64,000 bases of DNA from Candidatus Harrisonbacteria bacterium (GCA_016192685.1 JACPTS010000001.1:529099-593098), one strand, 5' to 3'. Positions 1,123-54,520 are shown, counted from the stretch's first letter. Program-made: numbers and translations. The notes: a model not told the origin generated them from the sequence alone.

Positions 1123-1194
1123 GGGCAGTTAGTTTAATGGTAAAACGCTGCATTCACATTGCAGAGAGCATAGGTCCGATTCCTATACTGCCCA
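1123..1194 (+). tRNA. tRNA-Val (anticodon CAC)
   Basis: Manual cloverleaf. Acceptor GGGCAGT/ACTGCCC, D-arm GTTT/AAAC, anticodon stem CTGCA/TGCAG with loop TTCACAT, T-arm ATAGG-TCCGATT-CCTAT, discriminator A, no encoded CCA. Confidence 0.7.
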
Positions 1195-23679: not shown

Positions 23680-24504
23680 ATGGAAATAATAACAAAGAAA
23701 TTTTATTTAAAGCTTGGTTTATCAGAAAAAGATATTTTAGCTCTTAATAAAGAGCTTTCATTACTCGCTGGACTTAAATTAAGTCCATCTGCCAAACCTC
23801 GTCGTATAGAAATGTTACAAGAGGCCATTCGATGGCCAAAAGGTAAAAATCAAGAAAAAAGGAAAATAACGGAGCTTTATAAATCTGGTGATTTTATAGT
23901 TGCCGTTGGTAAACCAGGAAAAGAAGCGGCGCCAGCTTTCAAACGGAAACATTACATAACTGGCAAGATTACTAATAATCCAAATGACATGAACCCCTTT
24001 GTTATGAGGGGAGGTAAAAAAGTTGGGAATGATTTAACTTTTGCAGAATTATTTGAGCAAATTGAACATTTAATTCGAGCAGATTTACTTGGATTGGAAC
24101 TTTTAGGGATGCTTATATTCAGAATGGCTTTTATGTTAGATCACAAAAAAGATTTAAAGGGGAAATGGAGATATATTCCTCCGGAAAAATCTTTGGCAAT
24201 GCTTAAAAAACGACTCCCTAAAGTTGGCGATATTCCGGTAGATATATTTTTATATTTTCTCGATGTATTAGCTCTCAATGAGGATGTTAAGATGCATACC
24301 TTGGGTCATGAAAATGCTCGATATGATTATGGACGAGTCAATACTTTACTTACCTTTACTCACTTAATTGCAGTTTTATTAAATCGACGCTCTCTAGCAA
24401 AATTTGCTGGTACGTTTGCTCGGCCACCTTCGGGAATGGCTCCACTACCTAAAATAAAAGGACTTTTTGAAACTTATCCTCTTTTATCTCCAGATTTTGT
24501 TTAA
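23680..24504 (+). CDS. Hypothetical protein, possible PD-(D/E)xK nuclease
   Basis: 274 aa. Contains IPVD-x12-EDVK. Its 3' end overlaps the fused LexA-MTase gene by 4 nt in convergent orientation. Confidence 0.3.
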   Translation: MEIITKKFYLKLGLSEKDILALNKELSLLAGLKLSPSAKPRRIEMLQEAIRWPKGKNQEKRKITELYKSGDFIVAVGKPGKEAAPAFKRKHYITGKITNNPNDMNPFVMRGGKKVGNDLTFAELFEQIEHLIRADLLGLELLGMLIFRMAFMLDHKKDLKGKWRYIPPEKSLAMLKKRLPKVGDIPVDIFLYFLDVLALNEDVKMHTLGHENARYDYGRVNTLLTFTHLIAVLLNRRSLAKFAGTFARPPSGMAPLPKIKGLFETYPLLSPDFV

Positions 24505-25967
24505 ATTTTAATCCTTTTTCTTCCCAGAAATAATTTATGTTCTGGAGCAATGAAACCATTTGCGAGGCGTTTGTTTATTATGTCACAGTATTCTTTGTTG
24601 AGCTCGGCCGAAATAAATTGGCGATTTAAATTTCTGCATACATCTATTTCTGCACCACTACCACCAAAGAGAACTAAAACCTTATCTTTTGGCTTAGTTG
24701 ATGATTTAATAAACATTTCAGTTAATTTTTGTGGAATTTGACAAGCGTGAAAAGTTTTTTCTTTGCTGACATTTTTTACAAGATTAAACTCAAACCATGA
24801 GTAAGGCATTCTTCCCTTTGAGCCATTTGCCAGATTTTGACGAATTCTTCTGTCTGTTGGATTTTTATATGGTAACGCTACTGCGTCTTTGAAGAATTTA
24901 TTATCAGCACTTTTACGAACATGAAGTATGCTTCTGTGTGCTGTTGTGAATCTTTTTGGTGTATGTCCGACATTTGTATTATAAACCCAAACATACTCAT
25001 TAATATTAGGAAAATTTATATCTAAGTATTTTACGCGAAGATGTGCATTTTGTTGAGGATAGTTCATCATAAAAAGGTTCCCATCGTTTTTTAGAACTCT
25101 CATTGATTCCTTAGTAAGTTCGGTATACCAATTTAAATAATCGTCAAAATTTCTTGTATAGTTATTACTACCATATCTAATACCGACATTATAATCCGGA
25201 TCCCCAAAAATCATGTCAATGCTATTATTTGGCAGGTCTTTCAAAACATGCATTATATCGCCGTTGTAAACTTTATTGATATATTCAGAAATATTTCCAC
25301 GTTGTTGGGGGCTTTTTTTAGAGGGTAGAATAAATGATTGGTTTAATTGTTTTATCTTATTAGTTTCAATAACATCCAGCATAATTCCTTGAATATGAAA
25401 ATCTTGTCCGCGGCGCACAATTATCGGCTCCATTTTTTTATTTGCCGGTTGTAGACGAACTTGCCCGCGTTCTTTATAGAATTTTTTAAGCGTTGCTCCA
25501 CCATCAACTAAGGCCACAATTTTTTGACCATTTTCAGCAGTGCTTTGGTGGCGCACAAGAATTGTATCGCCATCATTAATATTTTCATCAATCATACTGT
25601 TACCAGCTACTTTTAAAGCGTAAATATTGCTATTGCTGGAATTGGGGAGTTTATTTTTAGGAATCGCTATATTTTCGCTTACAGTATCAAATAGTGTTAA
25701 TGGTTGACCGGCAGCAATAGTGCCCAGTAGGGGAATTTGAACCATTTGTTCATTTTGGTTAGATAATTCAATCCCACGAGAGATGTTATCATTTCGTCGT
25801 AAAAAACCTTTTTCTACAATCGCATCAATATGTTCCAATATCGTTGAGTGCGCGGAGAGGCGAAAATGTTTTTTAATTTCCTCCGTGGTAGGGGAAATAG
25901 ATTGTTTTTTAATAAAATCAGAAACAAAATCGTAAATTTGTTTTTGACGTCTTGTCAGTGTTGCCAT
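24501..25967 (-). CDS. Fusion protein: LexA-type repressor (wHTH plus S24 autopeptidase) fused to a beta-class N4/N6 DNA methyltransferase
   Basis: The N-terminal approximately 200 aa form a complete LexA: wHTH, hinge IPLLGTIAAGQP with the Ala-Gly scissile bond, Ser VAGNSM, Lys ATLKK. The C-terminal approximately 290 aa carry MTase motif IV (IFGDPDYN) ahead of motif I (VLFGGSGAE). Single uninterrupted ORF of 488 aa. Confidence 0.75.
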   Translation of the reverse strand: MATLTRRQKQIYDFVSDFIKKQSISPTTEEIKKHFRLSAHSTILEHIDAIVEKGFLRRNDNISRGIELSNQNEQMVQIPLLGTIAAGQPLTLFDTVSENIAIPKNKLPNSSNSNIYALKVAGNSMIDENINDGDTILVRHQSTAENGQKIVALVDGGATLKKFYKERGQVRLQPANKKMEPIIVRRGQDFHIQGIMLDVIETNKIKQLNQSFILPSKKSPQQRGNISEYINKVYNGDIMHVLKDLPNNSIDMIFGDPDYNVGIRYGSNNYTRNFDDYLNWYTELTKESMRVLKNDGNLFMMNYPQQNAHLRVKYLDINFPNINEYVWVYNTNVGHTPKRFTTAHRSILHVRKSADNKFFKDAVALPYKNPTDRRIRQNLANGSKGRMPYSWFEFNLVKNVSKEKTFHACQIPQKLTEMFIKSSTKPKDKVLVLFGGSGAEIDVCRNLNRQFISAELNKEYCDIINKRLANGFIAPEHKLFLGRKRIKI

Positions 25968-26224
25968 AAGATATTGACTTTCTTAATTCACGCTTCATAT
26001 TAATTATAACCCGACAATTTCCCGACAAGAGGCAAAATTGTGGATAACTTTTCAGTAGTTAAGAATTTGGGAGCATGAAATAAAGAAAAATCCAGATAGG
26101 GTAGTCAATAAAATTATTAAATTTTTGAAATAGAATTTGCTTCTTTTTACGAACTGATTTATACTATTCAGTAATTTAAAAAATAATACGAAAGTAGTAT
26201 TTTCTATTTTAGAAAATAATTTGT

Positions 26225-26677
26225 ATGGCAATTCAAATGGATTTAAAAAAGATTTCGTTGATTCGTATAGAGGGTGCTAAAATACTATTAGATAAAGGAG
26301 ATTATCAAGGTTCTGCATATATGATGGGTCTTGCTCTAGAGTGCGCCTTAAAGGCAACTGTATGCAAAACTCTTAGAATACCCACCTATCCCGAAGATTA
26401 TAATGCCGATAAAAAAGTTCCCGACTTTTTTATGACGCATTCTTTTGTTAGACTATTATTAGTATCTGGTTTAACAGATATATTTAGTGCAAGTAGCAAT
26501 AACGTTAAAGCTTTCGATAACTGGTCCTTTTTTACGATTCAATATCCGGGTGAATGGGTGAGTATGCGCTATAGATTAGATCAGTTTGAACAAGATTTAA
26601 CAGAGGAGTTATATCAATGTTTATATTTTGATGAGAATAGCATTATTAAAGTCATTGAATATCAAAATAGATGGTAG
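26225..26677 (+). CDS. HEPN-like small protein (AT-rich accessory gene)
   Basis: N-terminal helix pattern AKILLDKGDYQGSAYMMGLALECALKA, typical of the HEPN fold. No clear Rx4-6H motif. Confidence 0.35.
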   Translation: MAIQMDLKKISLIRIEGAKILLDKGDYQGSAYMMGLALECALKATVCKTLRIPTYPEDYNADKKVPDFFMTHSFVRLLLVSGLTDIFSASSNNVKAFDNWSFFTIQYPGEWVSMRYRLDQFEQDLTEELYQCLYFDENSIIKVIEYQNRW

Positions 26678-27066
26678 ATAAACTTAAAAAAATATTAAGC
26701 AAAATGAAATCAGATGGAAAACCAGTCTGGCTATTTGCTTTTTTAAAAATGGATGAAATTATAGATAAATGGTCTTTAGTTATTTCTGCGCCTTGGATAA
26801 ATGAACAAAATCGTGATCAAGAATTTGAATATATTATCAATTTGTTAAAAGAAAATCTTAATGGCGAAGAATTATCTTCAATAGCTCGTATTAGTGTTTT
26901 GGCTAAAGATAGTCATTTAAGTCAAGAATTAATGAAGAAAAAAACAGGTGATTTAATAAAGGAAGAACAAATAAATGGCAACATTATTCACGAAGGTCAA
27001 ATATTGGAATCAAGCGTTGAGGCGCAGTGGCCATCAAATAATTTATTTGCTAAACAATCAAGTTAA
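26671..27066 (+). CDS. Hypothetical protein (overlapping partner of the HEPN-like gene)
   Basis: 131 aa. Overlaps the upstream gene by 7 nt. AT-rich. Confidence 0.3.
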   Translation: MVDKLKKILSKMKSDGKPVWLFAFLKMDEIIDKWSLVISAPWINEQNRDQEFEYIINLLKENLNGEELSSIARISVLAKDSHLSQELMKKKTGDLIKEEQINGNIIHEGQILESSVEAQWPSNNLFAKQSS

Positions 27067-27079
27067 ATTTACTTTTATA

Positions 27080-27192
27080 AAAATTTTCTGCTAATCTATA
27101 CCAAAACCGGCGTTATATTTTTTAAATAAAATTAATCAAACCGAGTCAAATCAGTTTATTATCGCAAAACCTGCCCTTGGCAGGTTTTGCGT
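27080..27192 (+). repeat. Intergenic repeat module, copy 1 (partial: ttctgctaa-ctataccaaaaccggcg plus terminal hairpin)
   Basis: Shares the ttttctgctaatctataccaaaaccggcg segment and the hairpin cgcaaaacctgcc-cttg-gcaggttttgcg with the modules at 27969 and 29087. Confidence 0.6.
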
Positions 27193-27289
27193 CAGATTAT
27201 TTTATGATAAAATTTATAGATTAAATTTATGTGTAAATCCGAAAATAATTTTGCTTATATTGACGGCGCTAATTTGCATAAAGGCATAT

Positions 27290-27350
27290 TGAAGGTCTAA
27301 AAAGAAAAAGCCCCCGGCGGATACGGATTCCGCAGGGGTCTTTTTCGTAG
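27290..27350. terminator. Bidirectional terminator-like hairpin
   Basis: aaaaag-cccc.ggcgga...tccgcagggg-tcttttt. Confidence 0.45.
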
Positions 27351-27426
27351 TGATACTTATACTATAGCATATTCAATGTTGAAGTCAATTGGGTGTTTTA
27401 GGAATAGTTTATATAAAATATAATTT

Positions 27427-27957
27427 ATGCAAATACCCAGACGGAAGTCGGAAGAACTTAGGAGGAAAGTTGAGGGGCCGATTCATATAACTGAAGAGGG
27501 TTTTAAGCGCCTGAAAGAACGGCTGGCGCATCTTAAACTTGCGCTGCCTGGCTATATCGTTGAGACGCAACGGGCCGCCGCATTCGGCGATCGGTCGGAT
27601 AATGCTGAATATAAAGATGCAAAATCAAGATTAACCCGCACGCACTTACAAATTTTAAGAATTCAGGATCAAATTAAGCGGGCGGTGATAATTCCTTCGG
27701 GTCAGAATACTTCTGGCTCGGTCCAGCTCGGTTCCACTGTTATATTGCGGGCCGAAGGCCTCGAGTATTCCCGAGGGGCAGGTGAGTCGCGGAAAACTTT
27801 TCAAATTCTTGGCGCGCATGAAACCAATCCAACTTTAGGGCGTATTTCATTTCAGTCGCCGCTCGGTGCCGCGCTTATGAATCACAAAAAAGGCAATGCC
27901 GTCACAATCCAGACCCCAACCGGTCCCCAAAAATATATTATTTTAGAAATTAAATAA
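27427..27957 (+). CDS. greA: Transcription elongation factor GreA
   Basis: GDRSDNAEY motif and a C-terminal FKBP-like domain. 176 aa. Confidence 0.85.
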   Translation: MQIPRRKSEELRRKVEGPIHITEEGFKRLKERLAHLKLALPGYIVETQRAAAFGDRSDNAEYKDAKSRLTRTHLQILRIQDQIKRAVIIPSGQNTSGSVQLGSTVILRAEGLEYSRGAGESRKTFQILGAHETNPTLGRISFQSPLGAALMNHKKGNAVTIQTPTGPQKYIILEIK

Positions 27958-27968
27958 ATCATTCGGTA

Positions 27969-28095
27969 AAAATTCCCTTTCCTGAAAATTTTCTTTTTGG
28001 TTATCTTCTCTAATTGTATCGAATGATTGAATAGTTTCAAAAATAAAATTTGCCCTTCTAAAAATTTTCTGCTAACCTATACCAAAACCAGCGGC
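27969..28095 (+). repeat. Intergenic repeat module, copy 2 (approximately 125 bp)
   Basis: aaattccctttcctgaaaattttctttttggtta(t/c)cttctctaattgtatcgaatgattgaatagtttcaaaaataaaatttgcccttctaaaaattttctgctaacctataccaaaacc is near-identical to 29087-29212. Confidence 0.8.
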
Positions 28096-28173
28096 AAAAA
28101 TAGCGTTTTTGCAATACAGTTATCCACCAAAGTTATTTATTACAGGTTAGTTATTATAGATTATCCGCAACAT

Positions 28174-28199
28174 TCTAACATTCTGCAGAATGTTGGAAT
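28174..28199. promoter_or_regulatory. 26-bp palindrome (candidate ArsR-family operator), upstream copy
   Basis: ttctaacattctgcagaatgttGgaa, with 1 mismatch from a perfect palindrome, overlapping the regulator start. Confidence 0.6.
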
Positions 28200-28495
28200 G
28201 TTGCGGGAGTAATGATATAGTGAAAATTATGAAAACGCCGAAACAACTAGAAAGACACTTTAAGGGGGTAGCCAATCATTGGCGGATCGCGATTTTATCA
28301 ATCGTGCATCAAAATGAGGGGATTGCGGTTGATGGCATCACGAAAGAGCTTAATGCGAATTTTAAAACCATTTCCCAACACACTAGATCATTGGTCCAAG
28401 CCGGCCTTTTGAATAAAAAATATCTCGGCCGCCAAGTAACCCACACCCTCTCGCCTTACGGGAAACTTTTTCTTAAATTTATTAAATCATTCTAA
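28190..28495 (+). CDS. ArsR/SmtB-family HTH transcriptional regulator
   Basis: HWRIAILSIV...GIAVDGITKELNANFKTISQHTRSLVQAGLL wHTH. 101 aa. Confidence 0.7.
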   Translation: MLECCGSNDIVKIMKTPKQLERHFKGVANHWRIAILSIVHQNEGIAVDGITKELNANFKTISQHTRSLVQAGLLNKKYLGRQVTHTLSPYGKLFLKFIKSF

Positions 28496-28515
28496 CATTC
28501 TGCAGAATGTTAGAA
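28490..28515. promoter_or_regulatory. Perfect 26-bp palindrome, downstream copy
   Basis: ttctaacattctgcagaatgttagaa, which is its own reverse complement. Overlaps the regulator stop. Confidence 0.65.
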
Positions 28516-28677
28516 TAAAGTTTCTAAAGATAAAATTCCCTTTCCTGAAAATTTTTTGCAGCGGGGTTAAAATTTTTCAAAACATTCTCAAGTGTGTAAG
28601 GATGTTATTTTTAATATAAAATTCTTTTGCCTGAAAATTTCCGCCTGTTATGGATTAAAGAATGCTAGAATAAACAA

Positions 28678-29076
28678 ATGAGAACTTATCAGGAATTTTA
28701 TCAGAGCATCCAGAAACCATTTTTTTCTCCGCCGGAATGGGCGTTCGGGTTGGCGTGGGGGATTATTTATCCGCTGATTGTGGTTGCTGGAATATATTTG
28801 ATTTATCTGGTTTATAAAAAACAAGCGCCGAAAAGTTTACTATGGGTTTTTCTTGCAAATTTGGCCGCGAATCTTTTATTTACTCCAATTCAGCTTGGTT
28901 TGAAATCGCTTTGGCCGGCGTCAGTTGTTATTTTAATAATTTTAGGAACTTTGGCTTTTTTTGAATATAAAATCCGGCTTCATTCCAAATTGATTTTTGT
29001 TTTGCTTTTGCCTTATCTTTTGTGGGGCGCATTTGCCACTGCGCTTCAGCTGTCAATCACCCTTTTAAATTTTTAA
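28678..29076 (+). CDS. TspO/MBR-like tryptophan-rich membrane protein (short)
   Basis: KPFFSPPEWAFGLAWGIIYPLIVVAGIYLI matches the TspO KPxWxPP...VWxxLY signature. 132 aa, about 4 TM helices. Confidence 0.5.
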   Translation: MRTYQEFYQSIQKPFFSPPEWAFGLAWGIIYPLIVVAGIYLIYLVYKKQAPKSLLWVFLANLAANLLFTPIQLGLKSLWPASVVILIILGTLAFFEYKIRLHSKLIFVLLLPYLLWGAFATALQLSITLLNF

Positions 29077-29086
29077 TTTAAATAAA

Positions 29087-29283
29087 ATTCCCTTTCCTGA
29101 AAATTTTCTTTTTGGTTACCTTCTCTAATTGTATCGAATGATTGAATAGTTTCAAAAATAAAATTTGCCCTTCTAAAAATTTTCTGCTAACCTATACCAA
29201 AACCGGCGCTACAATTTTTAATAAAATAACCCAAATTAATCAGATAATTCGCAAAACTTGCTTCCGCGGCAGGTTTTTTGTCA
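29087..29283 (+). repeat. Intergenic repeat module, copy 3 (full: approximately 125-bp core plus terminal hairpin)
   Basis: Near-identical to 27969-28095 and extends through cgcaaaacttgcttccgcggcaggtttttt. Confidence 0.8.
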
Positions 29284-29335
29284 GCGGAGCCGGCATAGTT
29301 ATCTCTTATTAGAGAGCTAAATAGTTTATATAGGT

Positions 29336-29370
29336 TATGTGTCCTTCGTCAAGTGACACACCATCACTTG
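29336..29370. promoter_or_regulatory. Perfect 14-bp inverted repeat upstream of the toxin-antitoxin operon (candidate operator)
   Basis: ccttcgtcaagtga-cacacca-tcacttgacgaagg. Confidence 0.55.
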
Positions 29371-29415
29371 ACGAAGGTAAAGTAGTAAGCTACTATTTAA
29401 GCAATAAATAGCATT

Positions 29416-29673
29416 ATGGAAAATAAAGAATTCATTTCAACAGTTGAGCTGGCCCAGATCTTGGGTATCAGTCGGCAAGCGGTAGCTGACAAAATTAAAC
29501 ACGGCAAAATAAAAGCCCAAAAATCCGGCCGGGTTTATGTGATTCAAAGAAAAGATATCCCGGAAATTTTAGGCGAGGTTTTAACCGAAAGCGATAAAAA
29601 AGAAATAGAGGTGGCGGTTAAGAAAACCGTAAGAGAGTACGGCGAAACTTTAAGATTGCTTGGAAAAGAATGA
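29416..29673 (+). CDS. HTH (excisionase/MerR-like) antitoxin, Phd-like partner of Doc
   Basis: STVELAQILGISRQAVADKIKHGKI HTH. 85 aa. Overlaps the toxin gene by 4 nt. Confidence 0.6.
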   Translation: MENKEFISTVELAQILGISRQAVADKIKHGKIKAQKSGRVYVIQRKDIPEILGEVLTESDKKEIEVAVKKTVREYGETLRLLGKE

Positions 29674-30095
29674 AATCCATCACAATATCCGAAGTGGAAT
29701 ACGTGGCGTTTCGATTGGCGAAAGAGCATATGCTGTGGGATGAGCCGATTCCGGATTTCGGTTCCCGTTTCCCGAATATTTTAGAAAGCTGCCTGGCGTC
29801 CCCATTCCAGTCTTTCGGCGGCAAAAAATTATACAAAGGATTGCTGGAAAAGGCATCGGTATTATTTTATCTGATGGTGAAAAATCATCCTTTTAAAAAC
29901 GGCAATAAAAGAATCGCAATGACAACACTGCTTTATTTTTTATATAAAAATAAAAAATGGATAAAAGTTGATAATCAGGAACTTTATAATTTTGCCAAAT
30001 GGGTGGCTGCCAGCAATCCTAAATTAAGGCGAGAAACAATTGCCGCCATTAATAAATTTCTCTCAACTTATTTACAAAATTTTATGATAAAATAA
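29670..30095 (+). CDS. doc: Doc/Fic-family toxin (death-on-curing)
   Basis: Fic/Doc motif HPFKNGNKR (HxFx(D/N)GNKR). 141 aa. Confidence 0.75.
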   Translation: MKSITISEVEYVAFRLAKEHMLWDEPIPDFGSRFPNILESCLASPFQSFGGKKLYKGLLEKASVLFYLMVKNHPFKNGNKRIAMTTLLYFLYKNKKWIKVDNQELYNFAKWVAASNPKLRRETIAAINKFLSTYLQNFMIK

Positions 30096-30111
30096 ATTTA
30101 TAGAATAATTT

Positions 30112-37245: not shown

Positions 37246-37350
37246 AAAATAGTATTTGACTCAAAATTTGATTTATGGTATACTATTAATATAAGTATAT
37301 ATAAGGGGGGATTGACTCCCGGGCCTTATTTATAGTAAAATATAAAAATT

Positions 37351-38397
37351 ATGAGTCTTAGCGTTTCTAAATTAACAATTCATTTATTGGAAAGCCTTGA
37401 CCAGAGGCAAAGAGAAGTTTTGGAGGGCCGGTATGGGCTCAAAGACGGCCATCCGAAAACCTTGGCTGAAATAGGCGATGCTAATCGGGTCACCAGAGAA
37501 CGGATTCGCCAAATAGAATCCGCGGCTTTGGCGGCTGTTAAAAAGTCAGCCGGCAAAACTCAACTTAGAGAGTTCGTGACAACGGTTAATTCCCATTTGC
37601 GGAATTTAGGCGGCTTGCGGCGCGACCTTCTGCTTTTGACTGACCTTCGGGCGATGGTTGGCGACCCCAATACCTCCAATTTAGGCAATAAGATTCATTT
37701 TCTTTTAGAGGTAGCCGGCGAAACTAAATTACATCCGGAAGACGGCGACTATTATTCTTACTGGCATTTAACCGAGGAAGACCGGAAAAGAGCCGGAGGA
37801 TTTCTCGGCAAACTGGTTAAATTGATGGAAGCTCGGAAACAAGAAGTGGTTTCCCATGGCACCATTGATTCCCTTTTTAAGGAAGCCATCGCGCCGCATA
37901 ACTTAAAAGATTTGGTGGCGTTAAACTACATTTCTGCTTCCAAAAATTTCCATGTCAACGAATATGGCGATTTCGGACTTTCTGGTTGGCCGGAAATTAA
38001 TCCTAGAACTATGCGGGATTGGGCGCATATTGTTCTGCGGAAACAGCAAAAACCGGCCCATTTCCAGGAAATCGCGAAAATGATTAATAAGGTCAGAAAG
38101 AATTCGCAAAAGTTTGCCCATCCCCAGACGGTTCATAATGAATTGATTAAAGACCAGCGTTTTGTTTTGGTAGGCAGGGGAATCTACGGATTGCAGGAGT
38201 TTGGTCTGATGCCCGGCACGGCTAAAGAGGTAATGGGCAGAATAATGGAAAAACACGGCCCTTTATCGCCAAAACAATTATTAGAGCTAGTTTTAAAAGA
38301 AAGAATGTTTAAAAAGAACACTATTCTAATCAATCTCCAGAATAAAAAGCACTTTCAGCGATTGGAAGACGGACGTTATACGATTAATTTGGTTTAA
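37351..38397 (+). CDS. Sigma-70 region-4 HTH domain protein
   Basis: N-terminus LDQRQREVLEGRYGL...[24 protein letters not shown] is sigma-70 region 4. 348 aa. Confidence 0.6.
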   Translation: MSLSVSKLTIHLLESLDQRQREVLEGRYGLKDGHPKTLAEIGDANRVTRERIRQIESAALAAVKKSAGKTQLREFVTTVNSHLRNLGGLRRDLLLLTDLRAMVGDPNTSNLGNKIHFLLEVAGETKLHPEDGDYYSYWHLTEEDRKRAGGFLGKLVKLMEARKQEVVSHGTIDSLFKEAIAPHNLKDLVALNYISASKNFHVNEYGDFGLSGWPEINPRTMRDWAHIVLRKQQKPAHFQEIAKMINKVRKNSQKFAHPQTVHNELIKDQRFVLVGRGIYGLQEFGLMPGTAKEVMGRIMEKHGPLSPKQLLELVLKERMFKKNTILINLQNKKHFQRLEDGRYTINLV

Positions 38398-38448
38398 AAA
38401 TAAGTTTTGTTCTTTTTCTTTGTTCGTTTTAAAATAAATATATAAGCT

Positions 38449-39735
38449 ATGGATTTTCCGGCTATTGCTTTTGGAATCAGCAAGACAATTTTAGAGGTTT
38501 TGAAAGTCAGTTGGTGGGCGTTATTGCCGCTCGGCTTATTTTTCTTTTGGCGGGAATTTTGGCTTTGGGGATTGAATCGTTTATGGAAAAAGAAACAAGA
38601 ATGGATTTTGTTGGAATTGAAGATTCCCCGCAATATTTTGAAGACTCCGAAAGCGATGGAAAATGTTTTTTCCGCCCTTCATGCCATTTATATCAGGCCG
38701 ATGGGTTTTGAAGACGTCTATTTTAAAGGCGAAGAGTTATATTGGTTTACTTGCGAGTTAGTGGGCTATGCCGGCGGAGTTAATTTTTATATCCGTTGCC
38801 TGAAAGGATTTCGCAATTTAGTTGAGTCCGCGATTTATTCGGAATATCCGGATGCTGAAATTGCGGAAGCGGAAGATTATACCGCTCTTATGCCGGACGT
38901 TTTGCCGAATGATATTTATGATCTTTGGGGCAATGATTTTATTTTAGCGAAAGATAATCCTTACCCGATTCAAACCTACGAGTTTTTTGAGGCTAACGTG
39001 GAAGAGCAAAGATTGGATCCGATTTCTGCCATTACGGAAGCGATGTCCCGCCTGAAAGAGGGGGAGGCGATTTGGCTCCAGTATCTTCTCCGGCCGGTAT
39101 CAGACGAGTGGAAAAAAGAAGGAGAGGCTCTGCGGGATAAAATGATGCAGCGCAAAAAAGAAAAAGAAGCAGGGTGGCTGGAGTCAATCGTGCAGGGACT
39201 GGTTCAATTTTTCAAAAATCTTTCTTTAGCTTCCATTGAACATCCGACTTGGCCGGAAACGGCGAAAAAGGAAAAAGAATATAAATTAATGGAATTTTTA
39301 TCCCCGGGAGAAAGGAAAGTGCTGGAAGGTATTGAGAATAAGATATCCAAATTAGGTTTTGAAGCCGCTATCCGGTTTATTTATATTGACCGGAAAGATA
39401 GTTTTTCTCGGGCTAATATTTCTGCCGTGCACGGGGCCATGCGCCAATTTAATACTCAGGATATGAATAGTTTTAGGATGCTCAGCGGAACAACGACCTA
39501 TGTCACTTCCAAAATATTAACTTACAAGAGCTGGTTTCGGGAACAACGGGTTTTTTATCTGAAGCGTTTGATTTATGAACTTTACAGACTGCGCTGGTTT
39601 CCGCCGAAAGTTTCTGTTTTAAATACGGAGGAGCTGGCAACCGTGTTTCATTTTCCATTGGTAACCGTGGAAGCGCCTTTGCTTGGCAGGGTAGAAGCTA
39701 AAAAGGGTGAGTCGCCATCTAATCTTCCAATTTAA
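38449..39735 (+). CDS. Membrane-anchored hypothetical protein (partner of the downstream ATPase)
   Basis: 2 N-terminal TM helices. 428 aa. Confidence 0.35.
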   Translation: MDFPAIAFGISKTILEVLKVSWWALLPLGLFFFWREFWLWGLNRLWKKKQEWILLELKIPRNILKTPKAMENVFSALHAIYIRPMGFEDVYFKGEELYWFTCELVGYAGGVNFYIRCLKGFRNLVESAIYSEYPDAEIAEAEDYTALMPDVLPNDIYDLWGNDFILAKDNPYPIQTYEFFEANVEEQRLDPISAITEAMSRLKEGEAIWLQYLLRPVSDEWKKEGEALRDKMMQRKKEKEAGWLESIVQGLVQFFKNLSLASIEHPTWPETAKKEKEYKLMEFLSPGERKVLEGIENKISKLGFEAAIRFIYIDRKDSFSRANISAVHGAMRQFNTQDMNSFRMLSGTTTYVTSKILTYKSWFREQRVFYLKRLIYELYRLRWFPPKVSVLNTEELATVFHFPLVTVEAPLLGRVEAKKGESPSNLPI

Positions 39736-39752
39736 TAAAAACTGGTAAATTT

Positions 39753-41339
39753 ATGCTTAAAAAAGAAATAATAAACCATTTTGGAATAACTAATTTTAGG
39801 AATCACAAGCAGGTATTTGGAATTAAGATAGAGGACCGCCGCCGGCATGTTTATGCGATTGGAAAAACCGGGTCGGGAAAAACTAATCTTTTAGAAACTA
39901 TGGCAATTGCCGATATTTTAGCCGGCAATGGAATGGCTTTTATAGATCCTCACGGAGACTCTGCTGAAAGGCTGCTGGATTTTATTCCGGAAAATCGCAT
40001 TAAAGACGTGATTTATTTTGACCCTTCTGACATGAATTTCCCCATTGCCTTTAATCCTTTGGAGCAAGTTGGAACAGAATATCGCCATTTAGTGGCATCT
40101 GGAATTATGGGAGTTTTTAAGAAAATCTGGGTGGATATGTGGTCAGCGCGGATGGAGTATATTTTAAACAATACTTTGCTCGCGCTTTTGGAATATCCCG
40201 AATCAACCTTGCTTGGCATTATGAGAATGCTGAATGATAAAGATTACCGGAAAAAAGTAGTGGACAATTTAAAAGACCCGGTAGTTAAAGGATTTTGGGT
40301 TAATGAATTCGCGAAATACAGCCAAAAATTTGAAACTGAGGCAACGGCTGCCATTCAGAACAAGGTTGGCCAGTTTGTCACTAATCCTTTAATCCGGAAT
40401 ATTTTAGGTCAGCCAAGGTCTTCTTTGGATATGCGCAGGGTAATGGATGAGGGCAAGATTTTAATTGTAAATTTATCTAAAGGCAAAATTGGAGAAGATA
40501 ATTCCGCGCTTTTGGGCGCGATGATAATTACCAAGCTTCAACTTGCGGCAATGTCCCGGGTGGATGTTCCGGAAAGCGAGCGTCAGGATTTTTACCTTTA
40601 TGTGGATGAATTCCAGAATTTTGCCACTGATTCTTTCGCGAGTATTCTTGCCGAGGCAAGAAAATATCATCTTTGTCTGATTTTAGCCCATCAATATATA
40701 TCTCAATTAATTCATGCCACTACTACTAAAGTTCGGGATGCGGTTTTTGGCAATGTTGGAACATTGTTGGCTTTCCGGGTTGGCGCGGAAGACGCGGAGT
40801 TTTTGGAAAAAGAATTTCAGCCGGATTTTATGGCGACTGACTTTGTTAATCTGCCTAAATATAATTTTTACATTAAATTGATGATTGATGGAATTTCTTC
40901 CCGCCCTTTTTCCGCTTCCGGCATTCCTCCTTTAAAACCGCTGGAGAAAAATTTTAAAAATGAAATTATTGAAAATAGCAGAAGGGAATATGGAAGGCCT
41001 CGGGAAATTGTTGAAAAGAAAATAGACCGAGATTGGCTGGCTGGAGGAGAAGTTATGGTTGAAGAAAAAATTTTCCGCCGGGCCGAACGCCCGCTTTCTC
41101 AGGTTTTAAAGCCGAAAGACGCGGGAGAAGAGCGATTTTTTGCTCCGAAGCCTCGGTCTTCGGCTGGTTCGCCTCCGGCGGAAAAACCGTCAATTCCGAT
41201 AGCCGAGTCCCGTCCGGATTTTCACAGGGAACCGCCGGCAGTTCCGGAAAGAAGTAAAAAGAAAGTGGCGATTGATGAACTGCGAGCGGCTTTAGAAAAG
41301 TCTTTGGCCGGCTCTCGAAGAAAGAATGATGAAGAATAA
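39753..41339 (+). CDS. FtsK/HerA/TraD-superfamily P-loop ATPase (T4SS coupling-protein-like)
   Basis: Walker A GKTGSGKT, Walker B LYVDEFQNF. 528 aa. Confidence 0.55.
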   Translation: MLKKEIINHFGITNFRNHKQVFGIKIEDRRRHVYAIGKTGSGKTNLLETMAIADILAGNGMAFIDPHGDSAERLLDFIPENRIKDVIYFDPSDMNFPIAFNPLEQVGTEYRHLVASGIMGVFKKIWVDMWSARMEYILNNTLLALLEYPESTLLGIMRMLNDKDYRKKVVDNLKDPVVKGFWVNEFAKYSQKFETEATAAIQNKVGQFVTNPLIRNILGQPRSSLDMRRVMDEGKILIVNLSKGKIGEDNSALLGAMIITKLQLAAMSRVDVPESERQDFYLYVDEFQNFATDSFASILAEARKYHLCLILAHQYISQLIHATTTKVRDAVFGNVGTLLAFRVGAEDAEFLEKEFQPDFMATDFVNLPKYNFYIKLMIDGISSRPFSASGIPPLKPLEKNFKNEIIENSRREYGRPREIVEKKIDRDWLAGGEVMVEEKIFRRAERPLSQVLKPKDAGEERFFAPKPRSSAGSPPAEKPSIPIAESRPDFHREPPAVPERSKKKVAIDELRAALEKSLAGSRRKNDEE

Positions 41340-43261: not shown

Positions 43262-44671
43262 ATGTCAAATGTTAAAAGTAAAAAGTTAAAGGTATTTTGT
43301 GCAATGTCCGGCGGAGTGGATAGTTCGGTTGCGGCAGGCCTTTTGAAGCAGGAAGGATATGAAGTGATTGGGGCGCATATGAAATGTTGGAGTGATGGTA
43401 GCCCTACTTCGCCAAGGCTTCGAAGGGCGGATGCTTGCGCATCCGAGCAGGATGCGGAAGACGCGCGAAGAGCGGCGGAGGTTTTGGGCATTCCATTTTA
43501 TGTTTTTGATTTTGAAAAAGAATATAAGGAGAAAGTAGTGGAATATATGGTGGATGGGTACCGGCAGGGAATTACGCCAAATCCGGACGTGATGTGCAAC
43601 AAGGAAATCAAGTTCGGGCTTTTTTTGAAAAAGGCATTGGAAATGGGAGCGGATTATGTCGCTACAGGTCATTATGTTTGTTTGGTTGAGCGAAGAAACT
43701 TTATTCCCTCAACCCGTTCGTCCGCCACCGCGGACTCACTTGTGCTCGCTCGCTTTGCCGATCGAGGCTTTGCCAAAACGATCGGACCAGGCAAAGCGGC
43801 TGCGCGGGTTTCGAAGAATAAAGCTTCTTCGCTTTATGGAATTCAAAGTAGCTGCTCCGCCTGTGTTTCGTGCGGCAACTACGGAGCCCTGAAATGCTCG
43901 GATTTTTGCGAAGCAAAAAATTTTAGGGCGAGGCGTAGGCGCGGTCGCCCGCCGGAGGCGACCGACGCCGGTGCCGTCAGAAATGCAGGCGGAGCGGCAC
44001 TTTTTACAGCTAAAGACAAAAATAAAGACCAGTCCTATTTTCTTTGGACTTTGACGCAGGAGCAGTTGCGGCATTGCCTTTTTCCGATTGGGGATTATTT
44101 GAAGCCGGATGTTAGAAAAATGGCGCGGAAGTTTGGTTTGCCGAACGCGGAGAAAAAGGACTCGCAGGGGATTTGTTTTTTAGGCCAGGTAACGCTGAAA
44201 GATTTTTTGGGAAATTATTTGCCGGAAAAGCGGGGATTGATTTTAAATACTGTAGGCAAAGTTGTTGGTGAGCATCAAGGGGCGCATTTTTATACTATTG
44301 GCCAGCGAGGCGGCCTTGGATTGGGCGGACAGGTGAAACCGGTTTATATCGCAGAAAAAGATATTAAAGAAAATGCGATTTTGGTGGCGGAAGAAAATGA
44401 TGCAGTGCTTTATAAAAAAGAGATTGAACTGAAAAATGTTAATTTAATAAATTCTGAATTAAAAATTCTGAATCATGAATTATTGATTCCTATTTTTGTT
44501 AGAGTTCGTTATAGGCAGCCATTAGTAAAAGCGAAATTAGTTATATGCCGTATGCCGTATGCCACATGTAAACTTGTGTTTGATAAGCCTCAAAAGTTTG
44601 TCGCGGCCGGCCAATCCGCGGTTTTCTACAATGCGCGGGGCGCAATGTTAGGCGGAGGCACTATTGCGTAA
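43262..44671 (+). CDS. mnmA: tRNA 2-thiouridylase MnmA with an approximately 100-aa in-frame repeat-derived insertion
   Basis: PP-loop SGGVDSS, ATGHY, KDQSYFL. 469 aa versus about 360 aa typical. The extra segment between ATGHY and KDQSYFL coincides with GC-rich repeats B and A. Confidence 0.85.
   Translation: MSNVKSKKLKVFCAMSGGVDSSVAAGLLKQEGYEVIGAHMKCWSDGSPTSPRLRRADACASEQDAEDARRAAEVLGIPFYVFDFEKEYKEKVVEYMVDGYRQGITPNPDVMCNKEIKFGLFLKKALEMGADYVATGHYVCLVERRNFIPSTRSSATADSLVLARFADRGFAKTIGPGKAAARVSKNKASSLYGIQSSCSACVSCGNYGALKCSDFCEAKNFRARRRRGRPPEATDAGAVRNAGGAALFTAKDKNKDQSYFLWTLTQEQLRHCLFPIGDYLKPDVRKMARKFGLPNAEKKDSQGICFLGQVTLKDFLGNYLPEKRGLILNTVGKVVGEHQGAHFYTIGQRGGLGLGGQVKPVYIAEKDIKENAILVAEENDAVLYKKEIELKNVNLINSELKILNHELLIPIFVRVRYRQPLVKAKLVICRMPYATCKLVFDKPQKFVAAGQSAVFYNARGAMLGGGTIA
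43699..43990. repeat. Composite family B (43699-43833) plus family A (about 43860-43990, reverse) insertion inside mnmA
   Basis: ctttattccctcaacccgtt...ctgcgcgggtttcgaagaataaag followed by gcggcaactacggagcc...gaggcgtaggcg...gacgccggtgccg. Reading frame stays open. Confidence 0.7.
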
Positions 44672-45238: not shown

Positions 45239-46654
45239 ATGATTAATCTTTCGATTCACGACTTCGCTTTCTGGCTCTGCGCCTTTTTTCTTTTGGGCGT
45301 GCTTTTAATCAGCTTGCTGAACAATTTTATCGCGGTAATTTTGATTAACGCGATTATATTTTTAACCCTGCTGGTTTTTAAACAATACAATTTTCTTTTG
45401 CTGATTCTATTTATTCTTGTTGGTTCCGGCTATTATGAAGCGGCCAACTACTTTCAAGAAAAAATTAATCTGCCATTTGACCAAAAGCAAGAATTAAAAG
45501 GAGTGGTCGTCCGGTTGGAGCAGTCTGCCGCGAAACAGGAATTAGTTTTAAATTTGGAAGAACCTTATCGAGGTAAAATTAAAATTAATGCCCGGCGTTA
45601 TCCCGGCTTTGAATACGGAGATTCGGTAAGAGTTATCGGCGTTATCAAAAAACCTCCGTTGATTTCGGAAAATTATTATAAAAAAGAAGGGATTAGCGGA
45701 TTGATAAATTTTCCCGCCATTGAATTATTAGAAAAAGAACAGGGGAATTTTATTAAGGCCTCACTTTTGGATTTTAAAGAAAAGATTGTCGGCACTTTTA
45801 AAAAATTTCTGCCCCAGGAGAAAGCCGCGCTTTTAGCTGGCCTTACTTTAGGAGCGCGGGAAGATTTCTCCAAGGAGCTTCAGGAAAAGATGTCTCTTAG
45901 CGGCACTACTCATTTGGTGGCGCTTTCCGGATATAATATTTCCGTTATTTCAATCACTATTGCTTCGCTTTTTGGATTATTCTTGTCGCGATCCGTCTCT
46001 TTTTACGCGAGCGTTCTCGTAATTATTCTTTTTGTATTGATGACTGGCGGGGAAGCATCGGTGGTCCGGGCAGCAATCATGGGCATTATTGCGATTATGG
46101 CTAAAGAATCTGAACGGATTTTTAGCATCCGAAACGCGATTATTATCGCCGCCTTTTTGATGGTTTTAGCGAATCCAAAAGTGCTGGTTTTTGATCTGGG
46201 ATTTCAGTTATCTTTTTTCGCGCTTCTTGGCATTGTTTATTTACTGCCGGTTTTAGAAAAGCTGTTTAAAATAAAGTCTCCAGGAGTTTTAAAATGGAAA
46301 GAAAATACTTTAACCACCCTTTCCGCCCAATTGGCGGTTATCCCATTTCTGCTTGGTGCCTTTGGGAAATTTTCCGTGTTTTCTTTAGTGTCTAATGTTT
46401 TGATTGCCGAGGCGATTCCGATTACTATGGCGCTTGGTTTTTTAATGGCTGGTTTGGGATTAATTTCCGATTTCCTTGCTTCAATTACCGCTTTGGCGGT
46501 TAATTTATTTCTTATTTATGAACTTTGGATTATTGATTTATTTTCCCAATTTACTTTGCCGGTAGCTTCAGAATCTTTTAGTTTTTTAGCCGCTGTTATT
46601 TACTATTTATTATTAATTGGTGTAGTATACGCATTAAATTGGAAATTAAAATAA
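45239..46654 (+). CDS. comEC: ComEC/Rec2 competence channel (membrane domain)
   Basis: Multi-TM with the conserved competence domain (SLSGTTHLVALSGYNISVI). Confidence 0.75.
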   Translation: MINLSIHDFAFWLCAFFLLGVLLISLLNNFIAVILINAIIFLTLLVFKQYNFLLLILFILVGSGYYEAANYFQEKINLPFDQKQELKGVVVRLEQSAAKQELVLNLEEPYRGKIKINARRYPGFEYGDSVRVIGVIKKPPLISENYYKKEGISGLINFPAIELLEKEQGNFIKASLLDFKEKIVGTFKKFLPQEKAALLAGLTLGAREDFSKELQEKMSLSGTTHLVALSGYNISVISITIASLFGLFLSRSVSFYASVLVIILFVLMTGGEASVVRAAIMGIIAIMAKESERIFSIRNAIIIAAFLMVLANPKVLVFDLGFQLSFFALLGIVYLLPVLEKLFKIKSPGVLKWKENTLTTLSAQLAVIPFLLGAFGKFSVFSLVSNVLIAEAIPITMALGFLMAGLGLISDFLASITALAVNLFLIYELWIIDLFSQFTLPVASESFSFLAAVIYYLLLIGVVYALNWKLK

Positions 46655-46660
46655 ATTTTT

Positions 46661-47554
46661 ATGGAGAAAGTTGTTCAGGAAGATAAATTTAAATATTTAA
46701 GGATAAGTTTAGGATTATTAATTACGCTGGATATTTTAATTTGGGTTTCAATTTTATTTCCGGTTCGCCGGCTGGCGGAGAAAAATTTAGAGCTTTATTT
46801 TTTGGACGTCGGGCAGGGGGACAGTTCTTTTATCCGGCTGGTCGGTGGAGTAGATTTGCTGATTGACGGCGGGCCGCCGAATGGGCGATTAGAGAAGAAT
46901 TTAGAGAAGATTTTGCCTATTCAAGACCGCTATATTGATTTAGTAATGGTATCTCATCCGCAATTGGACCATTTCGGCGGATTGATTGAGGTTTTGAAAA
47001 ATTATAAAATTGGAGCGGTTTTAACCAGTAATCAAATAAGCAAGCAGGCAGCCTGGCAGGAATTAGAAAAAATTATTAAAGAAAAAGGAATTCGGCGGAT
47101 TATTTTAGCGGCCGGCGATAAAATTAAATATCAGAATTCACAATTAGATATTTTATCGCCGCGAACTTCAGACTGGGCAAAAGACATCAATGATTTGAGT
47201 TTGGTGGCGCTTTTACAATATCCTTACATACTTGAGAATGTAAGGGTGTTGTTTACGGGGGATATTAGCGGTAAAAAGGAAAAAGAACTGGCAGATTTAT
47301 ATGATTTAGATGTTGATATATTGAAAGTCAGCCATCACGGGTCGCGATTTTCTTCCGACAGCGCGTTTTTAGAAGAAGCCAGCCCGGCAGTTTCAGTTAT
47401 TGAAGTCGGCAAAAATTCTTACGGCCATCCGACATCGCAGGCGCTTGCCCGGCTGGCTAATTTTAGCAGCCAAGTTTATCGGACGGATAATGACGGATTA
47501 GTGAAGTTATTGATTGACGGCGGAAAGTTAAGGGTCTATGCCGCAAAGCAGTAA
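46661..47554 (+). CDS. ComEC-associated metallo-beta-lactamase-fold domain protein (separate ORF)
   Basis: DVGQGDSSFI, HPQLDHFGG (HxHxDH). N-terminal TM helix. Confidence 0.7.
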   Translation: MEKVVQEDKFKYLRISLGLLITLDILIWVSILFPVRRLAEKNLELYFLDVGQGDSSFIRLVGGVDLLIDGGPPNGRLEKNLEKILPIQDRYIDLVMVSHPQLDHFGGLIEVLKNYKIGAVLTSNQISKQAAWQELEKIIKEKGIRRIILAAGDKIKYQNSQLDILSPRTSDWAKDINDLSLVALLQYPYILENVRVLFTGDISGKKEKELADLYDLDVDILKVSHHGSRFSSDSAFLEEASPAVSVIEVGKNSYGHPTSQALARLANFSSQVYRTDNDGLVKLLIDGGKLRVYAAKQ

Positions 47555-52789: not shown

Positions 52790-54520
52790 ATGTCCGATAC
52801 CGCCCAATTAGTGAAAGATAAATTGGATATCGTGGATTTTTTGCGGCAATATGTGGAATTAAAGCCGTCTGGGAAAAATTTCAAAGCCCGCTGCCCGTTT
52901 CATAAAGAAAAAACTCCTTCTTTTATGGTTTCGCCGGAACGGCAGTCCTGGCATTGTTTTGGCTCCTGCAGTGAGGGCGGCGACATCATTAAGTTTTTAA
53001 TGAAATATGAAAATCTGGAATTTTATGACGCTTTAAAGATTTTAGCGGAAAAAACCGGGGTAGAAATTTCTGCCGGTAACCGGGATTTTCAGGCCAATAA
53101 TAATTTATACGCGGTAATGAATGCTGCCAAAGAATTTTACAAATCCAATCTTACGAGGTCGGACCTCGTAAAGGGGTATTTAAAAGAGCGGGGGTTAAAA
53201 GAAGAAATAGTTCAAGAGTTTGAATTGGGTCTGGCGCCGGACGGCTCTGATGTTTTGACGCGGCATTTGTTAAAACTAGGCTATAATATTTTAGATATTG
53301 AAAAAGCCGGTTTGGCGCTAAAAACCGAACGCGGCACTTATTGGGACCGTTTCCGTTCCCGGGTGATGTTTCCTATTTATAATCAGGTTGGCAAAGTGGT
53401 TGCTTTTACCGGGCGGATTTTGCCCGGGAGTGATACCGGCAATGTCGGGAAATACGTAAATAGCCCGGAAACGCCAATTTTTCAAAAATCAAAAATTCTT
53501 TACGGTTTTCACGAAACAAAAAATGCCATTCGGGAAACTAAGCAGGCGGTAGTAGTGGAGGGCCAGATGGATTTTTTAATGGCCTGGCAGGACGGAGTGA
53601 AAAATGCCGTGGCTAGTTCCGGCACTGCTTTAACGCCGGACCACCTTACTATTTTGCGGCGTTTGGCGGATGAATTAGTTTTAAGTTTTGACGCGGATGA
53701 GGCGGGACAGCTGGCGGCGGAGCGAAGCATTGATTTGGCCGGCCAACAGGATTTTTTGGTAAAGCTTCTTATTATAGAAGGGCCAGAGGTTAAAGACCCA
53801 GCCGATGTAGTTAGAAAGCAGCCCGGGCGAATTAAAAAGCTGGTGGAACAGTCAAAATCAGCGATGGAATATTATCTTCACCGTTATATAAAAGATTTGC
53901 CAAGCGACCAAAAATTAAAAAAACAGAATCTTCGGACTATGCTTTCTAAAATCAAGAGTTTAGCGAGTCCGATTGACCAAAATTATTGGTTGAAGGAACT
54001 TTCGGGAATGGTAAATATTGAAGAGCGGATTTTGGCGGAAGAAATGGGAATGCTTAAAGAAGCGAGCTTGGCCGCGCGGCCAGAAAGCGCCGGTTTGGAA
54101 AAACCCGTTCCCAAATTATCCCGCCGGGATCTTATTTCGGAACGTCTGCTCGGCCTTCTCTTTCACCTGAAAAACGACCTTAATGAATTAACGGAGCACT
54201 TGTCTTATCTGCCAAAGCCTTATTTCCAAGTCTATGAAACTTTTGCGAAACAGAATAATTTAGAATTGCCCGGTGATTTATCAGAGTTAATGGCTAATGT
54301 CAGCCTCCGTTTTAGTTTTGATAATCAAAATTTGAACCCAGCTGATTTAGAGAAAGAGACGAAAAACCTTCTTCGGGAATTAAAAGTTGAATATTTGAAG
54401 GAAAAGCGGCAGGAAATCAGCGATTTAATACGTAAATTGGAAAAAGCCGGGGATGAAAATAGTTTGAAAGAGGCGCTTCGGGAATTCGCTGTTATTTCAA
54501 AAGAGCTGCAAAACGTATGA
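52790..54520 (+). CDS. dnaG: DNA primase DnaG
   Basis: Zinc finger [11 protein letters not shown]...CFGC. Toprim (EGQMD, DAD). Confidence 0.9.

Follow-up and report, generated by a model that had tools for sequence, protein, structure and literature searches.

A predicted two-piece coupling-protein-like motor and its sigma region 4 neighbour in the core genome of Patescibacteria

Type IV coupling proteins (T4CPs), such as VirD4, TrwB, TraD and TrsK, carry an N-terminal transmembrane domain of their own and have relaxase or type IV secretion system (T4SS) genes as neighbours. T4CP-type ATPases are DNA-dependent translocases, as established for TrwB. Homologues of these proteins without an adjacent secretion system have already been described in Patescibacteria: a survey counted 5,713 VirD4-type homologues in 2,918 of 3,035 genomes, roughly two per genome and almost never beside a T4SS (148 were near virB4), with VirB4 itself in 2,417 genomes, and its authors suggested a possible exaptation while leaving the role open (Quinonero-Coronel et al. 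2025, PMC12102498). Here we analyze a three-gene locus at positions 37351-41339 of a 64,000-nucleotide stretch of Candidatus Harrisonbacteria bacterium DNA (GCA_016192685.1, JACPTS010000001.1:529099-593098; "the window" below refers to this whole stretch), in which a T4CP-type ATPase is preceded by a membrane protein and by a protein with sigma-70 region 4. All three genes, numbered 1 to 3 in order, lie on the plus strand, as do all their features given below. The first-pass annotation of this DNA, made by a model from sequence alone, had proposed the three open reading frames (ORFs), and their coordinates and motifs were confirmed. In contrast to canonical T4CPs, the ATPase lacks a transmembrane domain, its anchor being a separate protein with one membrane segment and a VirB4-like domain, and it resides in the chromosomal core, with no relaxase or T4SS genes as neighbours either in the window or in 80 related loci. 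With moderate confidence, we interpret the locus as a vertically inherited operon, present at least in Paceibacteria-, ABY1- and Saccharimonadia-type lineages, that encodes a two-piece T4CP-like motor and an associated DNA-binding protein.

The ATPase and its membrane-anchored partner

Gene 3 (39753-41339) encodes a soluble 528-aa P-loop ATPase of the VirD4/TrwB type with a disordered C-terminal tail. The Walker A motif GKTGSGKT (39861-39884, residues 37-44) and the Walker B region YLYVDEFQNF (40593-40622, residues 281-290, with DEFQNF at 285-290) are separated by about 240 residues, the interval in which T4CPs have an inserted all-alpha domain; G37, K38, G40, G42 and K43 of the former and V284 through F290 of the latter are invariant in 19 orthologues. 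Orthologues are more than 50% identical across classes and share about 100 invariant positions. In Pfam, the protein matches TrwB_AAD_bind (PF10412; 1.2e-12, 47.9 bits, cut-off 20.5) over residues 25-344 and profile positions 10-311, T4SS-DNA_transf (PF02534; 5.6e-7, 29.2 bits, cut-off 20.1) and TraG-D_C (PF12696; 6.3e-7, above cut-off). The best, partial matches in NCBIfam are TraD and the CD1115-type VirD4, and CedB and CedD cover the P-loop only. Searches of the PDB, with either the single sequence or a profile of the 19 orthologues, retrieved only TrwB (3.9e-6) and DotL. Among the proteins of pSK41, the coupling protein TrsK is alignable to residues 31-355, that is, across the whole nucleotide-binding domain, whereas the VirB4 homologue TrsE aligns only at the P-loop; VirB4 models reach no better than E = 0.01-0.02.

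The first-pass annotation had left the choice between a T4SS coupling protein and a HerA/FtsK-type translocase, to be checked with profile searches. The first option stands and the second does not: as opposed to T4SS-DNA_transf, DUF87 stays just below its cut-off (22.6 against 23.2 bits), FtsK_SpoIIIE gives no match in Pfam, and no HerA or FtsK chain is found by profile. That the protein is an FtsK analogue is further weakened by the separate canonical, essential FtsK of S. epibionticum ML1 (PMC10633639). There is no hydrophobic window anywhere in the 528 residues (maximum KD19 1.41, Kyte-Doolittle scale). As judged from its sequence, gene 3 encodes a motor of the T4CP type that lacks the defining transmembrane domain of the canonical members.

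Beyond about residue 430 the ATPase becomes low-complexity, and near the end of this tail lies a conserved amphipathic motif, VAIDELRAALEKSL (41265-41306). In orthologues, a disordered linker is likewise followed by V(D/N)L..LR..L..SL(.KK) or by a terminal I(K/R)PG(E/Q)V(I/V)KF. Such motifs are possible partner-docking peptides; the C-terminal tail of F TraD is similarly long and disordered and also has a conserved motif at its end. Several orthologues also contain a CxxC...F.PD..RP element in the tail.

The 428-aa product of gene 2 (38449-39735) is a DUF8128 (PF26449) protein whose N-terminal membrane helix is followed by an alpha/beta domain in the cytoplasm. The family assignment comes from precomputed annotation of an identical protein, recorded from a Candidatus Harrisonbacteria metagenome-assembled genome (MAG), and of all 120 homologues listed; relatives form 1,919 clusters at 50% identity. 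No mention of DUF8128 was found in the literature searched. Kyte-Doolittle analysis of the query and 16 homologues reveals a single hydrophobic, Trp-rich anchor segment (38488-38577, approximately residues 14-43), and the AlphaFold2 model has one long helix at residues 3-49. The protein had initially been described as having two transmembrane segments; it is indeed membrane-anchored, but by one hydrophobic stretch. For the modelled cytoplasmic part of about 350 residues, the top structural match is VirB4, with Foldseek TM-scores of only about 0.3, followed by EccE of type VII secretion. The EccE match is much weaker, and no other components of a mycobacterial ESX (EccE/EccC) system are present. 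Unlike VirB4 (TrwK of R388), DUF8128 has no sequence similarity to CagE_TrbE_VirB or TrsD. We also considered whether DUF8128 might correspond to TrsD, the "VirB4 N-terminal-like" protein found near Patescibacteria VirB4, and rejected this because hhalign against pSK41 TrsD gives a probability of 0.2; similarly, the ATPase resembles TrsK and not TrsE.

DUF8128 has a conserved C-terminal tail, NTEELATVFHFP...EAKKGESPSNLPI (39622-39732). The last 35 residues are nearly invariant across homologues, including H401, P403, P423 and P427, even though the model is disordered here, with pLDDT below 50 over residues 406-428. In fused relatives this tail forms the linker into the ATPase.

It is these natural fusions that identify the membrane protein upstream as the partner of the ATPase. 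The profile phrog_5156 (824 positions) covers both proteins colinearly, gene 2 at 77-354 and gene 3 at 414-804. The DUF8128 profile aligns with the N-terminal half of Bacillus phage G gp156 (825 aa; hhalign probability 98.5, E = 4e-15) and with an 812-aa "conjugative DNA transfer" protein of an Embleya plasmid (WP_331738717; probability 87, E = 4e-6), in which the tail motif also aligns. SPO1 gp27.4 and WP_012300815 of Clostridium botulinum pCLK are further single-chain relatives, and the C-terminal halves of these proteins are 25-31% identical to the ATPase. On one IMG/VR contig (L093), a single continuous ORF runs from the DUF8128 tail motif into RHMYIIGKTGTGKS, so that the break between genes 2 and 3 of the window coincides exactly with the domain linker. 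Colinear with single-chain proteins, the products of genes 2 and 3 are predicted to form one functional unit, in which gene 2 supplies the membrane anchor and the cytoplasmic domain missing from the ATPase.

The fused forms sit among T4SS and Replic_Relax genes. On the Embleya plasmid the gene order is PrgI/VirB3, VirB4-like ATPase, fusion protein, Replic_Relax, NlpC/P60; in phage G the VirB4-like gp155 is directly upstream of gp156; in SPO1 the gene after gp27.4 encodes the Replic_Relax protein gp27.3; and on pCLK a VirB2 pilin gene directly precedes the fusion. Given this company, the ancestral form of the family looks to have been a conjugative coupling protein in monoderm elements, a distinct type that combines a VirB4-like N-terminal domain with a T4CP-like motor and of which genes 2 and 3 represent the split form. 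The locus in the window differs from these relatives, which are single-chain, borne on mobile elements and next to VirB4-like, PrgI, VirB2, NlpC/P60 and Replic_Relax genes; none of the relatives has a sigma region 4/winged-helix partner.

Outside Patescibacteria, tblastn of DUF8128 found nothing in phage genomes and one weak match on plasmids, beside a fragmented ATPase. This DUF8128-like gene, on the megaplasmid of Pontibacillus sp. ALD_SL1 (NZ_CP062975; 6004-9996 of the extracted locus, L090), is followed by two T4CP-like ATPase fragments, apparently a decayed gene, and by a sigma-factor-like helix-turn-helix (HTH) protein and a JAB/RadC gene 3 kb downstream.

Conservation of the gene order and the S. 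epibionticum counterpart

Whether the cluster is conserved was another suggestion of the first-pass annotation, and it is; the three ORFs are clearly not a product of chance. In the window the genes are separated by 51 nt (genes 1 and 2) and 17 nt (genes 2 and 3), the latter two being in different reading frames. A scan of a collection with one genome per species returned at least 592 matching stretches, and gene order was determined for the best 80 loci by ORF prediction and phmmer. Genes 2 and 3 are adjacent in 72 of the 80 and genes 1 and 2 in 69, with the full trio in 66 and median gaps of 33 and 13.5 nt. Queries with gene 1 homologues return the same order. These 80 loci are of Patescibacteria type and include Harrison-, Lipton-, Wolfe-, Terry-, Nealson-, Moran-, Magasanik-, Uhr- and Kerfeldbacteria among others. 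Nine of the related loci (L030, L034, L053, L057, L063, L072, L073, L079 and L085) come from MAGs titled as Bdellovibrionales, Gammaproteobacteria, Binatia or Pacearchaeota; these labels are probably wrong, as the loci display the Patescibacteria-type arrangement of SecDF, sigma region 4 protein, DUF8128 and ATPase. In one variant (L094, 6179-9781), a 205-aa ORF separates DUF8128 from a shorter ATPase of 439 aa.

The window itself is core chromosome, encoding DnaB, CysRS, DnaK, DnaJ, SecD, SecF, EF-P, MnmA, ComEC, AspRS, NDK, DnaG, a full-length RpoD (54517-55749) and AlaRS, and the GC content of the three-gene locus is ordinary for it. Dozens of lineages have the locus in the same position and order, with SecDF, EF-P and MnmA on its flanks; genes downstream differ between loci. 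In the 56 loci for which 4.5 kb or more was available upstream, SecF is followed by gene 1 in 33, gene 1 occurs without SecF in 17, SecF stands directly before DUF8128 in 4, and neither is found in 2. The locus is vertically inherited in the core genome of Patescibacteria.

A similar arrangement can be recognized in the epibiont S. epibionticum ML1 (Saccharimonadia), for which transposon insertion and domain data have been published (Wang et al. 2023, PMC10633639, Tables S1 and S2). SEML1_0294 (349 aa; Sigma70_r4 at 27-72, HARE-HTH at 225-283), parsed by those authors as a tri-helical plus three winged domains, has its domains positioned as in gene 1 and immediately precedes, on the same strand, the T4CP-like SEML1_0293. 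The latter is 921 aa long with PF10412 at residues 402-719 and thus has the fused architecture, its nucleotide-binding domain starting at residue 402, as opposed to the separate gene 3 of the window. Both are flagged as "core" and "Patescibacteria-enriched". In ML1 the two genes are flanked by a GNAT acetyltransferase and Cas9 at one end and by an alpha/beta hydrolase and topoisomerase I at the other, unrelated to the flanking genes of the window. SEML1_0294 was essential at all time points (ES/ES/ES), with 24 insertions in the input and 1-2 after selection, whereas SEML1_0293 was scored non-essential (NE), its normalized reads dropping from 5817 to 2940 and then to 1372; dispensability of the orthologue also distinguishes the ATPase from T4CPs (PMC10633639). 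The same genome encodes a second T4CP-like protein, SEML1_0142 (1,019 aa, P-loop domain at 381-800), which is core, Patescibacteria-enriched and essential (PMC10633639). It may be a true T4SS-linked paralogue and may explain the approximately two T4CP homologues per genome.

The sigma region 4 protein

Gene 1 (37351-38397) encodes a 348-aa protein in which sigma-70 region 4 is followed by four tandem winged-helix domains. Region 4 (Sigma70_r4, 2e-15; 37384-37545, residues 12-65) is 48% identical to the corresponding region of RpoD (E = 2e-14), and the ten residues of its recognition helix are identical to those of the window's own RpoD. T48, R49, E50, R51, R53, Q54 and I55 are invariant in 20 orthologues. 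The remainder of the protein folds as the four winged helices, the third of which is a HARE-HTH domain (PF05066, 3.5e-8; 38005-38202, residues 219-284) and the best-conserved portion of the alignment. Regions 2 and 3 were not found by Pfam in gene 1. The product was first taken for a regulator with region 4 as its only sigma region; no other sigma region is present, but it is a five-domain DNA-binding protein and more than a dedicated regulator, since its S. epibionticum orthologue is essential and that of the ATPase is not.

Lacking regions 1 to 3, the protein cannot act as a sigma factor. Nor is it the delta subunit of RNA polymerase (RNAP; RpoE of Firmicutes): TIGR04567 scores 31 bits against a cut-off of 42, the HARE-HTH domain is internal, the acidic C-terminal tail is absent and there are three additional winged-helix domains. 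Comparisons with the Replic_Relax proteins downstream of fused T4CPs and with the sigma-like HTH protein encoded close to the Pontibacillus homologue revealed no similarity. Nothing relevant on a combination of HARE-HTH with sigma domains was found in the literature searched. Based on its domain composition, with the -35-recognition helix intact, the protein is predicted to bind DNA and possibly RNAP.

How tightly gene 1 belongs to the other two is the point at which our interpretation meets its most serious competitor. According to this alternative, gene 1 is a general RNAP- or nucleoid-associated factor that adjoins the pair through inherited synteny, without a mechanistic link. The contrast in essentiality between the two orthologues is in line with it, as are the binding of sigma region 4 to the -35 element and the beta-flap, the HARE-HTH domain, which is the fold of RNAP delta, and the synteny with SecDF, showing that gene order in this group can be long-lived. 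However, adjacency is maintained from Paceibacteria- and ABY1-type genomes to Saccharimonadia despite different flanks and a fused ATPase, and the intergenic gaps are tiny. We regard this alternative as tentative but worth keeping in view. In our own interpretation, because its orthologue is essential and the ATPase orthologue dispensable, gene 1 would have a general role beyond the ATPase, in transcription or associated with the chromosome, and may additionally load or regulate the motor.

Possible functions and genomic setting

In the mechanism that we propose, DUF8128 would tether and organize the ATPase hexamer at the cytoplasmic membrane, with its conserved disordered tail docking onto the ATPase, and ATP hydrolysis would power the movement of a polymer, most probably nucleic acid, towards or across the membrane. 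The motor might act in concert with the chromosomal T4SS of the phylum, encoded elsewhere, or independently; an obligatory role in the T4SS is argued against by its dispensability in ML1 and its presence in more genomes than VirB4. The first-pass annotation had envisaged a translocation apparatus for conjugation or an uptake-like process. A coupling-type translocase is retained from that proposal but not a complete apparatus, as genes for a channel, pilin, VirB4, relaxase or mobile element were not found in the window. The locus is neither a full apparatus for conjugation or uptake nor a mobile element, defence island or FtsK substitute.

Several observations weigh against a two-piece motor with an associated DNA-binding protein. 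The window contains no VirB4, VirB6, pilin or relaxase gene, and no substrate, channel or partner was identified. About 6 of the 80 loci lack the ATPase after DUF8128, and these absences are genuine and not due to contig ends. SecDF is syntenic in 37 of the 56 loci, so conservation of gene order may partly reflect inherited synteny and not function. The assignment of DUF8128 to the N-terminal domain of VirB4 is inferred from whole-model comparison, at TM-scores of only about 0.3. Likewise, the orthology of SEML1_0293 and SEML1_0294 was assigned from domain architecture and adjacency, not from sequence alignment. With one of these ML1 genes essential and the other not, gene 1 cannot exist solely to serve the ATPase. 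Finally, as T4CP homologues are found in 96% of genomes and VirB4 in 80%, coupling to a T4SS cannot be their general function.

The last point bears directly on the possibility that the chromosomal T4SS of Patescibacteria, whose VirB4, VirB3, VirB6 and pilins are encoded elsewhere, has its missing coupling protein in this pair, which would feed protein or DNA substrates into that essential machine. The ATPase is of the T4CP family, its fused relatives occur inside T4SS clusters, and the T4SS cluster of S. epibionticum has no recognizable coupling protein (Wang et al. 2023, PMC10633639). Yet SEML1_0293 is non-essential whereas the T4SS genes of ML1 are essential, 148 of the 5,713 homologues are near virB4, about 500 more genomes have a T4CP than have VirB4, and the essential SEML1_0142 is a better candidate. 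We therefore consider such a function unlikely.

A T4SS-independent motor for import or export of nucleic acid, for instance in DNA or RNA uptake with ComEC and type IV pili (compare archaeal Ced and Helicobacter ComB), would fit the DNA-dependent translocation known for T4CP-type ATPases and the DNA-binding nature of the upstream partner. ComEC is encoded 4 kb downstream of the operon here and in close relatives, and ML1 can dispense with comEC as well as with the T4CP orthologue. However, proximity to ComEC is confined to close relatives, a pore made of six single transmembrane helices alone is unlikely, and the CedB and CedD matches comprise only the P-loop. As it stands this reading is doubtful, and its more specific form, in which the DUF8128/T4CP-like pair serves uptake or hand-over of DNA or host RNA with the essential sigma region 4 protein as a DNA- or RNAP-binding partner, is decidedly speculative. 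Import is nevertheless worth testing because the route by which Patescibacteria take up host nucleic acid (RNA) has been stated to be unresolved (bioRxiv 10.64898/2026.06.21.733656). In the window, ComEC consists of two adjacent ORFs on the plus strand, 45239-46654 (DUF4131/Competence) and 46661-47554 (Lactamase_B), and it is also split in related loci L007, L010 and L012.

It is improbable that the pair energizes protein export together with SecDF and the Sec translocon. SecD-SecF directly upstream in the 37 loci, 4 of them without gene 1, would be compatible with this, as would the recruitment of protein substrates by some T4CPs (DotL) and the second-best structural match of DUF8128, EccE. 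On the other hand, SecDF is missing from the ML1 locus, gene 1 occurs without SecF in 17 of the 56 loci, and the fused relatives associate with Replic_Relax and T4SS DNA-transfer genes. In addition, SecF and gene 1 are 238 nt apart, with promoter-like sites in between. This spacer holds two sigma-70-like promoter candidates (37256-37341, plus strand), TTGACT-17-TATACT with an extended -10 TG and TTGACT-18-TAAAAT, each with 10 of 12 matches; as the number of sites in the promoter and terminator scan did not exceed the shuffled expectation, these are weak candidates chosen by location only. An Rfam scan of 36.5-42.5 kb gave nothing credible.

A remnant integrated conjugative element or prophage, or an anti-phage defence module, is very improbable: homologues do occur on plasmids and phages and PADLOC reports mad8 on the ATPase (1.4e-18) and MzaA on the region 4 domain, but position and order are constant in dozens of lineages, GC is ordinary, no integrase, relaxase or repeats lie beside the locus, the ATPase is more than 50% identical across classes and "core" in the table of Wang et al. 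(2023), and 2.9 million viral contigs yielded one partial match only. As for the defence assignments, the MzaA match is restricted to region 4 (58.7 bits against a cut-off of 800), that of mad8 reflects generic ATPase similarity, and no companion genes are present, so both MADS and MZA were rejected.

Several other features of the window were recorded along the way. MnmA (43262-44671, plus strand) has 469 aa compared with about 350-400 aa in relatives, and its HUP domain is matched by Pfam in two separate parts, suggesting that some 100 residues have been inserted. An ORF of 488 aa at 24501-25967 (minus strand) combines LexA_DNA_bind, Peptidase_S24 and an N6_N4 DNA methyltransferase, an unusual LexA-methylase fusion. 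It falls, together with an HTH_17 and Fic gene pair, in a stretch of low GC (24000-30100; 0.34-0.36 against about 0.41 elsewhere) that may be an acquired island. Near the start of the window, at 1134-2741 (minus strand), a large serine recombinase (Resolvase, Recombinase and Zn_ribbon_recom) is encoded.

Although orphan T4CP homologues of Patescibacteria are already in the literature, the following appear to be undescribed: the split ATPase/DUF8128 architecture, the structural resemblance between DUF8128 and VirB4, the relationship of the pair to fused proteins of plasmids and phages, and its conserved association with an essential sigma region 4 protein. The ultra-small Patescibacteria account for a large part of bacterial diversity, cannot synthesize nucleotides and obtain macromolecules from their hosts. 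The three proteins represent a concrete module that is genetically tractable in Southlakia (SEML1_0293/0294). If it proved to be a motor for nucleic-acid uptake, it would provide a molecular handle on nucleotide acquisition by these auxotrophic epibionts.

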